The notes under the pieces are model-generated. The model was not told the DNA's origin and made no database searches. It was given only the letters and a program-made list of their open reading frames with translations. From IMG/VR virus record IMGVR_UViG_2681813004_000011: a stretch of 17,781 nucleotides of DNA; one strand, 5' to 3'. Position numbers and translations under genes: made by a program. This stretch comes from a virus. Lineage: Duplodnaviria; Heunggongvirae; Uroviricota; Caudoviricetes. The first letter of the stretch is position 1; every line of letters begins with the position of its first letter. Shown piece by piece: positions 7,635-11,381 of the stretch.

Positions 7635-7871
7635 ACCATCACGCGGTACCGGAATGGCCCCCACAGCGTCATCCACCATCGCCTGCAGAACCGGACGCAC
7701 CTCATCCACCGTCACATGCTTCTGTAATACCGCCGACAGGGAAGTCAGTTTCTCTTCAAACGCTTGTGCCTGCGAGGCCATCTTCCCCTCAAATGTGCGC
7801 TGTAAATCCGCCAGCACCGTGGAGAATTCTTCACCCAGCGCACGGATAATGGACAGTTCACGCTCTGTCAT
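7602..7871 (-). CDS. N-terminal part of the same tandem-repeat protein
   Basis: 89-aa ORF translationally coupled to the portal (ATGA overlap at 7868..7871). It ends with the repeat motif IPVPRDGRDYDPDVLRS just before a stop at 7602..7604; the downstream ORF continues the repeats in another frame. Confidence 0.5.
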   Translation of the reverse strand: MTERELSIIRALGEEFSTVLADLQRTFEGKMASQAQAFEEKLTSLSAVLQKHVTVDEVRPVLQAMVDDAVGAIPVPRDGRDYDPDVLRS

Positions 7872-9232
7872 TTTCGCAGTATCCCCCTGAACATCGCCTT
7901 CACCGCATCACGCTCTGTTTCGCTTATGGCCTTATTACCGTCAGACGCGCCCTCCTGGCGTGTGCCTGACGACGTTTTCCCGGAAGACGCGAACGGATCC
8001 TCACGGGCATCACGACGGGACAGCGCCTCCAGACTGTAGTTCTGCTGCTGAAGATACAGTGCATCACCGCCGGCCAGGGGCGGCAGGTTCTCACGTTTAC
8101 GGGCCTCATTGGGCGTGAGAAGCGTATTTTTCACCGCATCCCCCAGCGTTTTCATGCGCCGCTCACTGTCCATTCTCAGCAGCGTGGTGACATCAAACTC
8201 CGTACTCTCGTTTTCCCCCGTTTCCAGCGCCTCATCCAGTAACAGTTCAATGGACTCAATCAGCGTCTGCAGGCACTGGGAATAATACTGCTGCTCCAGC
8301 GCCTCCACGTTGTCACTGGAAGGCGGCTGGCCAACGCCAATCTTGTAGGCCGGGACACGGAACACCGAACAGACAATTTCAGCGGTCATCTTCAGTTGTT
8401 CCACCGTCTGCGCATCCACAGGTGAAAACGTCGTGGGGTTGTATTTTGCCCCGTTGCTCAGAATGGCCGTTTTCCCCGCATTTTCGCCTGTATACCCGCT
8501 GTCCCAGTTGCTCTTCAGTTTTTTCGCATTTTCTTCCGTAATACTGCCGGGGATCTCAATCACCCCGGACGGCCTGCCGCCATTTCTGAAAAAAGACGTC
8601 GAATTTTCCTGAATATGATGCCCCTGCGTGGCCGCCAGCCCGGCGGCATACACCGGCGGCAATCCTATAAGCGGATGAAAAAAACAGTTAAACCGGTCGT
8701 GGATCACTTCCCGGGCAGGCACCGTCACCGCCTCCGTGATCCCGCAGTTCCGGTCCGGCGTGATGCGGTAGAACACCTCGCCGTCATCCGCCACCAGAGG
8801 TTCAACCCGGCTCCAGTCCAGAATACGCAGTTCTTTGATCTGCCCCCGGGCATTACGGATTTTCAGCACCACCGTATTGCCATGACGCAGTTTGGCGTTC
8901 AGCCACAGTTCAAAAAACTGGATGCGGTTCTGCTGGGCGTTGGGACGACGACAGAGGCGGGCAATATCCCCCCGGCGCGTTTCCCTGCGTATCCCATGCG
9001 CATCCGTCTGCATAAGACGCAGCCGCATTTTGGCGATATCCTGGGATATCAGCGAAATACATGCAAACACCGCATGAAAGGAGAGGACGGCTTCAGGATC
9101 GGCTTTCACGCCCTGCTGCCAGGCGCCGGAAAAGGGCTCAGCCACCGCCTGAAACAGGCTGGTCCAGCCCGCCTCTCTTACGTCACGTCCTGATTTCTGG
9201 TTTTTTCGGGTTCGCCGTAAAAGGTTCCACAT
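7868..9232 (-). CDS. Portal protein (HK97 family)
   Basis: 454-aa ORF with portal-family motifs as recalled: N-terminal FHAVFACISLISQDIA, central FFRNGGRPSGVIEIPG...NWDSGYTGENAGKTAILSNGAKYNPTTFSPVDAQTVEQLK, C-terminal LLRMDSERR...LTPNEARKRENLPPLAGGD, and an acidic tail. Confidence 0.9.
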   Translation of the reverse strand: MWNLLRRTRKNQKSGRDVREAGWTSLFQAVAEPFSGAWQQGVKADPEAVLSFHAVFACISLISQDIAKMRLRLMQTDAHGIRRETRRGDIARLCRRPNAQQNRIQFFELWLNAKLRHGNTVVLKIRNARGQIKELRILDWSRVEPLVADDGEVFYRITPDRNCGITEAVTVPAREVIHDRFNCFFHPLIGLPPVYAAGLAATQGHHIQENSTSFFRNGGRPSGVIEIPGSITEENAKKLKSNWDSGYTGENAGKTAILSNGAKYNPTTFSPVDAQTVEQLKMTAEIVCSVFRVPAYKIGVGQPPSSDNVEALEQQYYSQCLQTLIESIELLLDEALETGENESTEFDVTTLLRMDSERRMKTLGDAVKNTLLTPNEARKRENLPPLAGGDALYLQQQNYSLEALSRRDAREDPFASSGKTSSGTRQEGASDGNKAISETERDAVKAMFRGILRK

Positions 9233-9399
9233 TCGCCATGCTCCGCATCACGTTTCTTTTTCTGACCTGCCGGACGTCGCACCGTGATGTACTCCGCCTT
9301 TCCCAGGCGAACCAGCACCTCCGCACACGGCTGTGCCACATCACGGATATCCCCGGCCCGGGCATCATGCGTGCCCTGCAGATATCGGATCTTTGCCAT
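9178..9399 (-). CDS. Hypothetical small protein (73 aa); may not be real
   Basis: ORF starts right after a GC-rich hairpin downstream of the capsid gene and overlaps the annotated portal start by about 55 nt in another frame. No recognisable motif and a weak SD. Confidence 0.3.
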   Translation of the reverse strand: MAKIRYLQGTHDARAGDIRDVAQPCAEVLVRLGKAEYITVRRPAGQKKKRDAEHGECGTFYGEPEKTRNQDVT

Positions 9400-9409
9400 A
9401 ACCTGTTAC

Positions 9410-9427
9410 GGGAGGCGCACGCCTCCC
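9410..9427 (-). other. GC-rich stem-loop immediately downstream of the capsid gene stop
   Basis: GGGAGGCG-CA-CGCCTCCC forms an 8-bp perfect stem. It lies between an AAGGAGG motif and the ATG at 9399 and has no U-tract after it. Confidence 0.4.
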
Positions 9428-9443
9428 GTCCTCCTTATCAGAC

Positions 9444-11381
9444 TCAGCCGCCGGACGCACTGCCGTAGTTCACTCCGGTGATCACCGCCACCGCCGCAGT
9501 ACGGCGACGACGCCAGTTGATCCAGCGCTCCGCACGGATGGCCACGCTGCCTGTCTGGAACATGGAAACCAGCTCCACCGGGGACGGCGTGGTACTGTCG
9601 CCGGTCGGCTCAGACTGCATTTCCAGTGATGCCTCGCGGGACATATCCACTGCCACGCCGCCGTCATCCGCCAGATAAATATCCGGGGCATTCACCAGCA
9701 CCAGCTGGTCACCCACGTACTGGGAGACAATCACCGGCAGCCCCTGGAAGGAGCCACCCAGCAGGGTCATGTCCGGGTATTCCTTCTGACCCAGCGCATT
9801 TTTACGCATGGACAGTGCCAGGGCATTGGTGCTGGACATCAGCCAGACCGCACCGGTGGGCTGCAGGTTTGCTGCCACAAACTGTCCAAACGCCGCCTCT
9901 GCATCCGCATCCGGGTTACCGGTTGATGCCGTGCCCTTCACATCATGGGTGATGGACGCCGGGGAGACATCTGCCACTGCGGCTTTTTTCGGGTCCACAA
10001 AGTCTGTATCCAGACGCGCCACCACCGCTTCCGCCAGCGCATTACGGACCAGTGCATCAGCAGCCGGACTGGAAAAACGGATCAATTCTTCCGTCAGTAC
10101 CGCAATGGCCGACACTTTCGCATGACTGAAGGTGATGGATTCAAAATCAAACTTCGTCAGGGGTTTTGCCTTACCCTCACCCACCCAGCCGGCAGCACCG
10201 CCGGACACCTGGGCGTGCACACGGATATTGAACGGCACCTGACGAAGTGCAGGGATCCCGCCCTGACCAAATCGCCCGATAATGGTCTGCGGACGCAGGT
10301 AATCAATAAAGTCCTGTGCGTATTCCTGATATTCAGACAGGCTGCCTGCCCACTGCGGATCCGTGGTGGTCCCCGCGCCCACTGCCGATTTCAGGACATG
10401 ATGCAGACGACTGTCATCCGGATACTGACGACGGGCCACTTCCAGGGCTTCAGATCGGACGCCTTTAGCCGCAGCCAGCGATTTGGCAAAGCGGGCGAAG
10501 CCAATCCCCTTATCCAGTTTCTGCTCCACACGGATCACCGGCGCAGAAGCCACCGCGGCCACATTCCCGTTACCGGCCTGTTTCACCGGCTGCGCCGTGG
10601 CGGCCTTACCGGCTTCCAGTTCACGCAGACGCTTCAGGTGCGCATCCACCTGACGGATTTCCGCTGCGGTGTTGTCGTAATGCTCTTCCTCCTCCACATC
10701 CAGCGTGCGCCCTTCCTCTGCGGCTTTGGTCATGACCTCCTCAAGGGAGGCTGCCAGCGCTGCACGCTTGTTTTCAAAACTTTTAATCTGTTCGCCAATA
10801 TTCATTATGGTCTTTTCCTTATGAAAAACGGTTGTTGACTGTGCCGCAGCGCCGGCAGAAGATGCGATTTTCACCACCGGTTTCCGGTTGCCGGACGCGG
10901 CAGAAAACGGGCGGTCGTAAGATTTAATGGTCCGGATGGTGCATTCCGCATTCGCGGGCACGGTGACGGCAGACACCTCCATCAGTTCCCAGCGCAGAAA
11001 ATGCAGTCCGCCTCCGTCCAGAAAGGTGTATTCATGGGGACGGAAGCCCACGGACAGCCCCCTGACCAGCCCGGTCTTAATGGCCGCCCAGACCTCATCC
11101 AGCCGGGCAGCCAGTTGCGACGGCATATCCGGTACGGGCTTCACCAGTGTTGCCGTGATTTCCAGCCCTTCGCTGACCCGGCGTACCGTACACTGCCCCA
11201 CCGGGCGGGAATGGTCATGCTGCCAGAGAAACGGGATCGCACTGCCAAACTCCGCGCCCTCCGGCTCCAGGATGTCACCATCCCGATCCGGAGAAGGTGT
11301 TGACGCAATCCCGGTGATCACCCGTTCATCCTCACTGAAGGATTTCACCGTCAGCAGGGAACAGGCCCGTTTAAGAGTCAC
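9444..11381 (-). CDS. Prohead protease - major capsid protein fusion (HK97-type protease domain + HK97-fold capsid)
   Basis: 645-aa ORF. N-terminal ~170 aa carry prohead protease motifs (ITGIASTPSPDRDGDILEPEGA, IPFLWQHDHSRPVGQ). The remainder has the coiled-coil N-terminal region and C-terminal motifs (GLPVIVSQYVGDQLVLV, SVAIRAERW) typical of HK97-family capsid proteins. GTG start at 11381 preceded by AGGAGG. Confidence 0.85.
   Translation of the reverse strand: MTLKRACSLLTVKSFSEDERVITGIASTPSPDRDGDILEPEGAEFGSAIPFLWQHDHSRPVGQCTVRRVSEGLEITATLVKPVPDMPSQLAARLDEVWAAIKTGLVRGLSVGFRPHEYTFLDGGGLHFLRWELMEVSAVTVPANAECTIRTIKSYDRPFSAASGNRKPVVKIASSAGAAAQSTTVFHKEKTIMNIGEQIKSFENKRAALAASLEEVMTKAAEEGRTLDVEEEEHYDNTAAEIRQVDAHLKRLRELEAGKAATAQPVKQAGNGNVAAVASAPVIRVEQKLDKGIGFARFAKSLAAAKGVRSEALEVARRQYPDDSRLHHVLKSAVGAGTTTDPQWAGSLSEYQEYAQDFIDYLRPQTIIGRFGQGGIPALRQVPFNIRVHAQVSGGAAGWVGEGKAKPLTKFDFESITFSHAKVSAIAVLTEELIRFSSPAADALVRNALAEAVVARLDTDFVDPKKAAVADVSPASITHDVKGTASTGNPDADAEAAFGQFVAANLQPTGAVWLMSSTNALALSMRKNALGQKEYPDMTLLGGSFQGLPVIVSQYVGDQLVLVNAPDIYLADDGGVAVDMSREASLEMQSEPTGDSTTPSPVELVSMFQTGSVAIRAERWINWRRRRTAAVAVITGVNYGSASGG

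Follow-up and report, generated by a model that had tools for sequence, protein, structure and literature searches.

The viral DNA stretch IMGVR_UViG_2681813004_000011 (17,781 nt; the whole stretch is called the window in the following) carries phage head genes whose order departs from the canonical succession of terminase, portal, protease and capsid, which was verified on the HK97 record. In the window a single 645-amino-acid (aa) open reading frame (ORF), encoding both a prohead protease and a major capsid protein, follows the gene of the large terminase subunit (terL) and precedes the portal gene. Does this order reflect a rearrangement, an assembly error or a head-assembly lineage of its own? 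Together these genes form the head-morphogenesis module of a lambdoid prophage of E. coli that belongs to the long-tailed Shiga toxin (Stx) phage type (Pankowvirus, Marienburgvirus). Their order is ancestral and fixed in a large HK97-like lineage across Proteobacteria and does not stem from a rearrangement in this genome. We regard the identity of the module and the conservation of its order as practically certain.

Gene order of the head module

All relevant genes are located on the minus strand. In the direction of transcription they comprise an HNH endonuclease gene, the small terminase subunit gene terS, terL, the 645-aa fusion gene (9444–11381), a 73-aa ORF, the portal gene (7868–9232), an 89-aa ORF and a 315-aa repeat-containing ORF. 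Past the repeat ORF lie the neck genes (gp6-like adaptor, head closure, gp10-like protein, tail terminator) and then the genes for the major tail protein, the G/T chaperones and the tape measure protein. The 454-aa portal protein matches the HK97-family profiles PF04860 (274.5 bits, cut-off 39.1) and TIGR01537 (351.5 bits, cut-off 112), which confirms the order terL, fusion, portal proposed in a first-pass annotation of the window.

That annotation had placed the fusion directly after terL and the portal gene behind it. The order is real, but a conserved 73-aa ORF (9178–9399) lies between fusion and portal. It belongs to a family of unknown function (PHROG 829, E 4e-39), overlaps the start of the portal gene by 55 nt in a different frame, is annotated in RefSeq and in phage records, and has homologues in Enterobacterales loci detectable by tblastn. 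Small ORFs also fill this slot in Pseudomonas phage PAJU2 and in relatives in which protease and capsid are not fused.

HK97 contains the same protein families as the window, namely terS, terL, portal, S78 protease and an HK97-fold capsid protein whose N-terminus forms a helical, delta-like domain. Its neck genes match as well (gp6-like adaptor, head closure, gp10-like protein, tail terminator) and an HNH gene adjoins the terminase. The two modules differ in the position of the portal gene, which stands before the protease gene in HK97 and after the capsid gene in the window. In the window protease and capsid moreover form one ORF, and two genes are additional: the 73-aa ORF and the repeat-containing gene after the portal, which we call gene X.

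Conservation of the capsid-before-portal order

A block of 7.1 kb that extends from terS to the repeat ORF is found collinear and with 90–99% identity in 95 phage records, mostly Stx1a, Stx2a and Stx2c converting phages including YYZ-2008, 2851, 1717, JLK-2012 and vB_EcoS-783R2. For the Stx-type phages YYZ-2008 (Pankowvirus), BP-4795 and JLK-2012 (Marienburgvirus), 2851, 1717 and vB_EcoS-783R2 nucleotide identity over the block amounts to 95–98%, order and gene lengths equal those of the window, and the fusion protein is 99–100% identical in the closest records. In annotated relatives the genes are ordered likewise. Among 5,426 complete E. coli genomes the block was matched in 1,258, at a median of 5 places in each; in 1,242 of these genomes the match extends over 80% of the block or more. 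A recent or local form of the module rearrangement suggested at first pass is not supported by this distribution.

The same collinearity bears on the possibility of a misjoined or chimeric contig whose true order is canonical. The order recurs in the 95 phage records, in the 1,242 E. coli genomes and in 80 distant loci of many genera described below, while the sole local anomaly in the window is an 8-bp insertion within tandem repeats that has no effect on gene order. An assembly misjoin, for which a check had been advised, is thus extremely improbable.

Outside E. coli, Salmonella and Serratia prophages with a fusion protein 75–77% identical to that of the window contain HNH, terS, terL, fusion, a portal of 449–451 aa, a separate gene of 300–347 aa and the adaptor. 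A HMMER scan of 1.84 billion cluster representatives returned 1,197 clusters at E <1e-30, and nearly all of the best 150 (38–54% identity) are full-length fusions of 630–680 aa. One 90%-identity cluster of fusion proteins alone comprises 9,916 members. Using an alignment of 40 diverse fusion members we retrieved 80 loci from GTDB species genomes, mainly from Gamma- and Alphaproteobacteria, with some from Betaproteobacteria and a few from other phyla; the fusion protein shows 41–77% protein identity. When these loci were searched by tblastn with the window proteins, terL preceded the fusion and the fusion the portal wherever all three were detected (59/59), and the fusion preceded the portal in 77/77. 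The canonical order was found in none of the 80 loci. A synteny comparison with related prophages had been proposed as a check, and it gives the same order in Salmonella, Serratia, PAJU2 and the GTDB loci. What counsels caution in reading these counts is that the 80 loci share ancestry and do not represent independent events.

PAJU2 (Detrevirus) provides a distant isolated example. Its ORF003, a 'prohead protease fused capsid protein' labelled as a structural protein in the record, is 48% identical to the window fusion over the full length. The order is like that of the window: terminase, fusion, small ORFs, portal and an X-like ORF007 overlapping the portal stop codon. PAJU2 differs from the window by its distant sequence, by two small ORFs between capsid and portal and by its host.

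Two further relatives encode protease and capsid separately. Their genes are arranged as terL, S78 protease (209–224 aa), capsid (465–467 aa, about 50% identical to the capsid part of the window protein), a small ORF and portal. Since these unfused relatives keep the order, the position of the capsid gene before the portal gene is a trait of the lineage that does not depend on the fusion. In one of them (locus L188, 2772–5327) the terL product ahead of the separate protease and capsid genes has 851 aa, compared with 553 aa in the window.

One could propose that the portal was moved behind the capsid gene by a recent rearrangement restricted to this prophage or to the Stx phages of E. coli, on the grounds that the order is unlike that of HK97, lambda and most textbook modules. 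The identical order in Alpha-, Beta- and Gammaproteobacteria at 41–77% protein identity speaks against it, as does its recurrence in PAJU2 and in the unfused relatives, and we give this explanation next to no credence. The counts in the GTDB loci together with the unfused relatives instead bear out the other suggestion made at first pass, that of a distinct head-assembly lineage.

The placement had also been called unusual. This did not hold: the layout is already known, as it has been deposited and annotated in public records, both for PAJU2 ORF003 and for Stx phages, whose records label the fusion 'major head protein/prohead protease'. Among isolated phages the fusion occurs in 117 of 50,697 records, and because it is uncommon there the order looks atypical beside textbook modules. 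The gene order as such matters little, since it is standard in a family of prophages that about a quarter of complete E. coli genomes contain and that is also found in medically important Stx phages.

Domain structure of the protease-capsid fusion

The fusion gene starts with a GTG codon preceded at 6 nt by an AGGAGG motif. Its product contains a match to Peptidase_S78 (PF04586) at residues 48–152 (34.7 bits, cut-off 21) and to Phage_capsid (PF05065) at residues 386–635 (53.1 bits, cut-off 24.2). It scores 78.1 bits against TIGR01554 (major_cap_HK97, cut-off 27.5) and aligns end to end with PHROG 617. An AlphaFold model computed with 40 homologues (mean predicted local distance difference test score, pLDDT, 76.7) and Foldseek agree with these profile matches above the Pfam cut-offs, so that the ORF is indeed an S78 protease joined to an HK97-fold capsid protein, as the first pass had read it.

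From the N-terminus, the model shows a beta-rich protease domain (residues 1–144, 10950–11381; pLDDT about 80–90) and a linker (residues 145–192, 10806–10949) that is disordered (pLDDT <50) and, in the alignment of the 40 diverse members, poorly conserved and variable in length. It is followed by a helical hairpin (residues ~193–262, 10596–10805) with helices at 195–223 and 229–261 (pLDDT 85–90). By its sequence pattern the hairpin is a homologue of the N-terminal part of stand-alone capsid proteins, and by analogy with HK97 we take it for a delta-like scaffolding domain. After a second disordered stretch (residues 265–283) comes the HK97-fold shell domain (residues ~285–645, 9447–10529), with pLDDT mostly 70–94 across residues 360–640. 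The top solved structures matched by the model in Foldseek are the capsids of Bxb1 (9d9x, E 3e-15) and HK97 (Head II, 2ft1, E 1e-10).

Two results count against a close correspondence with the HK97 proteins. The fusion reaches 46.5 bits with the HK97 proheadase equivalog TIGR01543, under the curated cut-off of 59, and the capsid half compared with HK97 gp5 by sequence gives a non-significant BLASTP result and an hhalign probability of 0.2%. By its profile scores the protease is a divergent member of the superfamily and not a TIGR01543 equivalog. Since the direct comparison with gp5 is non-significant, the capsid assignment is founded on the profile matches (Pfam, TIGR) and the fold of the model. 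A sequence search of solved structures with the fusion returned only a weak match to Bxb1.

The protease part shows 29% identity to HK97 gp4, and His55 and Ser110 of the fusion are situated in motifs aligned to gp4. The catalytic residues of HK97 gp4 are His65 and Ser114. In the related loci His55 is kept in 77/77, Ser110 in 76/78 and Glu135 in 76/76, which shows that the protease motifs are under selection.

Could the 645-aa ORF be a pseudo-fusion, created in this window by a sequencing frameshift or a lost stop codon? The existence of unfused relatives would be in keeping with such an origin. A fused ORF of 630–680 aa, however, occurs in thousands of clusters, one of them with 9,916 members, and in all 80 loci, leaving the artefact hardly conceivable.

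Protease-capsid fusions form an established class in annotation and have been noted in papers on other phage groups, and the union of protease, scaffold and capsid in a single gene is described as common in small-genome siphoviruses. The NCBIfam family NF045541 ('prohead protease/major capsid protein fusion protein') is, judged by score, separate from the window fusion, which obtains 54 bits against a cut-off of 525. In phage MD8 a single gene encodes protease, scaffold and capsid; according to the MD8 paper, ClpP served as template for modelling the protease domain, which could be aligned with the protease-scaffold protein of lambda, and the capsid is Mu-like. The concept is the same as in the window fusion, with protease, scaffold and capsid in one gene, but the protein families are different.

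A conserved candidate start codon within the fusion gene

Within the fusion gene we noticed a candidate internal translation start (10803–10820), composed of an AAGGA motif at 10820–10816 and an ATG at 10805–10803 encoding Met193; its proposed use derives from comparison. A start codon is present at the aligned position in all 80 full-length loci (76 ATG, 2 GTG, 2 TTG). We assessed the upstream Shine-Dalgarno (SD)-like motif by predicted anti-SD pairing. In 41% of the loci it ranks in the top 5% of the in-frame positions of its own gene, compared with 5% expected, and in 59% in the top 10%. Many loci contain strong canonical SDs inside the coding sequence, for example AAGGAGGG with −12 kcal/mol, and Enterobacterales keep the AAGGA motif though the encoded residues differ. 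In sibling lineages with stand-alone capsid proteins, the alignment of these proteins to the fusion begins at query residue 193, and in the two unfused loci a spacer of 32–34 nt with an SD motif precedes the ATG homologous to Met193. The predicted disordered linker ends at residue 192, directly before this methionine.

From these observations a nested 453-aa delta-capsid product, which would be initiated at the candidate start ATG 10805 and made beside the 645-aa protein, appears rather likely. Against it weighs the internal SD of the window (AAGGA), which at −6.2 kcal/mol is of no more than moderate strength and stands at the 13th percentile within the gene.

The alternative is a single 645-aa polyprotein with protease and shell in a 1:1 ratio, in which the internal ATG and SD are functionless relics of the former start of a capsid gene. 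It draws on the stronger SD of the upstream start (AGGAGG), on the weakness of the internal SD in the window and in some loci, and on the shared ancestry of the loci; by a rough estimate a T=7 procapsid could also physically hold one protease per subunit. Yet the start codon is kept in 80/80 loci down to about 41% identity, at the end of an otherwise variable linker, strong canonical SDs lie within the coding sequence of many loci, and AAGGA persists in Enterobacterales while the amino acids change. We consider the single polyprotein the less probable of the two, although a serious contender.

With two products, the gene may work as follows, the steps being derived from HK97 and from the comparative data. 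The fusion would have arisen by read-through of a protease gene into a capsid gene whose ribosome-binding site was retained, and ATG 10805 would be the original start of the capsid gene, as in the unfused relatives. One capsid gene would then supply the protease, scaffold (delta) and shell functions, with the S78 protease (His55, Ser110) tethered via the disordered linker to the delta domain and the HK97-fold shell. The two in-frame products, 645 aa from GTG 11381 and the 453-aa delta-capsid from ATG 10805, would co-assemble around the portal, so that a subset of covalently delivered proteases ends up inside the procapsid. The protease would subsequently cut away itself, the linker and the delta domains, as in HK97, and the shell would expand while the terminase, aided by the upstream HNH protein, packages DNA. 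Our overall explanation of the locus, with this mechanism included, seems to us likely, with good confidence.

Nested in-frame protease and scaffold genes are known from herpesvirus UL26/UL26.5, lambda C/Nu3 and Mu I/Z. In these systems a long protease product is accompanied by a shorter, probably more abundant assembly product from an internal start, similar to what we propose for the fusion. Unlike in the UL26/UL26.5 type, the nested product of the fusion would include the shell protein itself. If so, the gene would constitute an equivalent of UL26/UL26.5 among bacterial viruses, with the shell protein as the nested product, and translation initiation would set the ratio of protease-bearing to plain subunits. 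The conserved internal start thereby offers a testable hypothesis for how protease dosage could be controlled from a fused protease-capsid gene.

Putative crosslinking residues

We also compared the residues involved in crosslinking of the HK97 capsid, using an hhalign alignment to HK97 gp5 that is of low confidence. In this alignment K169, N356 and E363 of HK97 fall on Lys406, Gly611 and Glu618 of the window protein. Among the relatives Lys406 is found in 81/81 and Glu618 in 78/80, and position 611 is Asn in 78/80. Codon 611 (9549–9551) encodes Gly in the window, in YYZ-2008, JLK-2012, BP-4795 and FORC_042 and in the E. coli cluster of 9,916 members, so that HK97 Asn356 tentatively corresponds to a Gly in the E. 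coli clade. If the alignment is right, the lineage would in general be a chainmail crosslinker, and the Stx-phage clade of E. coli may have lost the Asn and with it the isopeptide crosslink.

The portal gene and its boundary with gene X

The portal protein is 27% identical to HK97 gp3, and its relatives in the PDB include 9lbn and 8cez. At its 3' end the stop codon overlaps the start codon of gene X (ATGA, 7868–7871). A run of five G residues (G5, 7883–7887) lies close to this boundary, one G fewer than in the aligned sequence of YYZ-2008. The longer G6 allele joins portal and X into a single 861-aa ORF named 'portal', seen in YYZ-2008 and 2851, whereas the window carries the split G5 allele like BP-4795 and JLK-2012, whose annotation lists portal and X separately.

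In the G5 frame the portal of the window ends in ...AMFRGILRK* and the next ORF begins with MTERELS. The portals of Salmonella (...AMIRGFLTK*) and Serratia (...AMIRGLLAK*) end in the same frame, and their downstream genes begin with MNERELS and MNDRDLS, respectively, at the same stop-start overlap. All portals found outside E. coli have 443–452 aa and are followed by a separate X gene. Among 68 diverse loci the portal stop overlaps the X start in 59. Because C-terminal frame, lengths and stop-start overlaps of the relatives match the G5 form, we conclude from these comparisons that portal and a separate, translationally coupled gene X are very probably the native state and that G6 is a derived, fusing allele.

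In contigs of IMG/VR we counted 57 G5 and 41 G6 alleles. The alleles track the flanking haplotype: G5 occurs in many diverse clusters, G6 mostly in one, and mixed haplotypes were seen in 2 of 45. Sequencing noise or rapid phase variation could accordingly be rejected as the source of the two alleles, and the clustering indicates that G6 is inherited. This inheritance in a sizeable sublineage counts against separate genes as the rule, as they are not universal in E. coli. A G6 portal would carry a C-terminal extension of 400 aa.

The opposite reading takes the 861-aa 'portal', the form on which PGAP naming is based, for the true gene; the window portal would then be a pseudogene that two frameshifts interrupt, and its C-terminal extension would be what was called the repeat protein. 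This reading has in its favour the continuous ORF of YYZ-2008, 2851 and others, the inherited G6 allele in clusters of IMG/VR contigs and PHROG 2271, which models the full 859 positions as 'portal' and covers the 454-, 89- and 315-aa ORFs in succession. All relatives outside E. coli, however, have a portal of 443–452 aa with a separate overlapping X; it is the G5 frame that is conserved at the C-terminus of the portal, BP-4795 and JLK-2012 have split genes, haplotypes with G5 exceed those with G6 in number and diversity, and solved HK97-family portals measure only 393–431 aa. The sole private lesion in the window is the 8-bp insertion. An original 861-aa portal is therefore improbable. For annotation, this model has the consequence that pipelines flag normal split genes as frameshifted.

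Gene X and its insertion

At first pass a repeat protein had been placed in the slot after the portal. A gene is present there, but it is not an intact 315-aa gene. Instead, a gene X of about 405 codons, coupled to the portal gene, is broken there by an insertion, and the 315-aa ORF represents its 3' part. The 5' part, an 89-aa ORF (7602–7871; PHROG 2271 positions 455–542), encodes an N-terminal helix and the first repeat and is homologous to the N-termini of stand-alone X proteins. The 3' part (6646–7593; PHROG 2271 positions 545–859) encodes 54-aa repeats and, at the C-terminus, a beta domain whose tip resembles CBM5/12. Between them lies an insertion of 8 bp, GATCCTGA on the coding strand (7602–7609), identified by alignment to YYZ-2008 and FORC_042, which shifts the frame of X and supplies the stop codon of the 89-aa ORF. 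Deletion of the 8 bp in silico restores a 405-aa X that is homologous over its full length to stand-alone X proteins.

The insertion is private to the window in comparison with the Stx-type phages. The insertion-bearing sequence has no exact match in IMG/VR. When an 81-nt query spanning the insertion was searched against the 5,426 E. coli genomes, none of the matches listed (90–92% identity over the full 81 nt) carries it; one unlisted record falls in the band of at least 99%. The insertion is contained in a tandem repeat (7106–7655, period 162 bp, 3.3 copies, Tandem Repeats Finder), and owing to this location both a real inactivating mutation and an assembly error are possible.

Stand-alone homologues of X have 300–460 aa. 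In them a long N-terminal helix is followed by 54-aa helix-loop repeats, which vary in number, and the C-terminal beta domain closes with the motif GDTVTWGGSLWHC. The part kept in distant loci is the C-terminal ~90 residues. The C-terminus matches CBM_5_12 (PF02839) with 21–22 bits (E 2e-4), under the cut-off of 26.2, and several homologues have a precomputed PF02839 match. Foldseek aligns about 50 residues of the C-terminus to chitin-binding domains of chitinases with probability 1.0 and E 0.04–0.1, for a model with a mean pLDDT of only 60. Matches of X in BFVD are collagen-repeat or ChiC_BD fibre-like phage proteins; their template modelling (TM) scores are low and the matches only suggestive.

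We interpret X as a conserved, presumably fibre-like protein translationally coupled to the portal. For its function our best guess, guided by the structural models, is a head or neck accessory with a sugar-binding tip. The C-terminal end of portal proteins faces the capsid interior, and for this reason a sugar-binding fibre sits uneasily with the G6 fusion. A minor head protein of the MuF/SPP1 gp7 type was considered and rejected, as neither the 315-aa ORF nor the restored 405-aa X matches Phage_Mu_F at E up to 0.01, and no NCBIfam match was obtained.

The public names of X are inconsistent ('phage portal protein', 'gp6-like head-tail connector protein', 'Carbohydrate binding domain'), which is of practical concern for annotation, and both PHROG 2271 and PHROG 1289 tag the X sequence 'portal protein'. 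Such names probably go back to the fused form and to genes next to X, from which they were wrongly transferred.

Considered jointly, a three-in-one capsid gene read from two conserved in-frame starts, a portal-coupled X and an E. coli branch that may have lost the crosslinking Asn form a combined reading to which we assign an even chance. In the searchable literature we found no paper discussing the position of the capsid gene before the portal, the start codon inside the fusion gene, protein X or the replacement of Asn by Gly. The internal start, X and the Asn-to-Gly change are modest testable leads and not established novelties; the latter two are cheap leads for head structure or stability of Stx phages.

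Flanking genes and stem-loops

The HNH endonuclease ORF (13956–14321) was assigned by an HNH-type profile match, is annotated as HNH in relatives and is located just upstream of terS. HK97-like cos packaging employs an HNH accessory protein, and the position of the ORF fits this type of packaging. The 187-aa terS product (13103–13666) matches Pfam Terminase_2 (E 1.9e-8) and PHROG 641 (E 2e-68), and the 553-aa terL product (11445–13106) matches Pfam TerL_ATPase and TerL_nuclease as well as PHROG 9 (E 1e-145). Downstream of X we identified the gp6-like head-tail adaptor Ad1 (6317–6643; Pfam Phage_connect_1, PHROG 40), the head closure protein Hc1 (5957–6307; Phage_HCP, PHROG 25), the HK97 gp10-like neck or tail-completion protein (5514–5960; HK97-gp10_like, PHROG 5) and the tail terminator (5173–5517; Tail_completion_gp17, PHROG 347).

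Between the terL stop codon and the fusion gene a terminator-like hairpin with a 7-bp stem is followed by a T-run (11403–11420). According to a consensus scan and inspection of the sequence it is the sole terminator-like site on the sense strand within 6500–13800. Just past the fusion stop codon, at about 9409–9428, the 8-bp GC-rich arms CGGGAGGC and GCCTCCCG form a further stem that lacks a T-run. In the HK97 record putative terminators are annotated around the head genes, and the fusion gene of the window is likewise bracketed by stem-loops, which may tune or stabilise the capsid transcript.

Between the Rz spanin gene and the HNH gene lies a 113-aa ORF (14694–15035) that matches TonB_C with 55.9 bits against a Pfam threshold of 24.6. 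Despite this match the PHROG label of its family is 'Rz-like spanin'. In YYZ-2008 and BP-4795 the same interval is occupied by a DUF3950 gene on the opposite strand, and the 113-aa ORF may be a moron.

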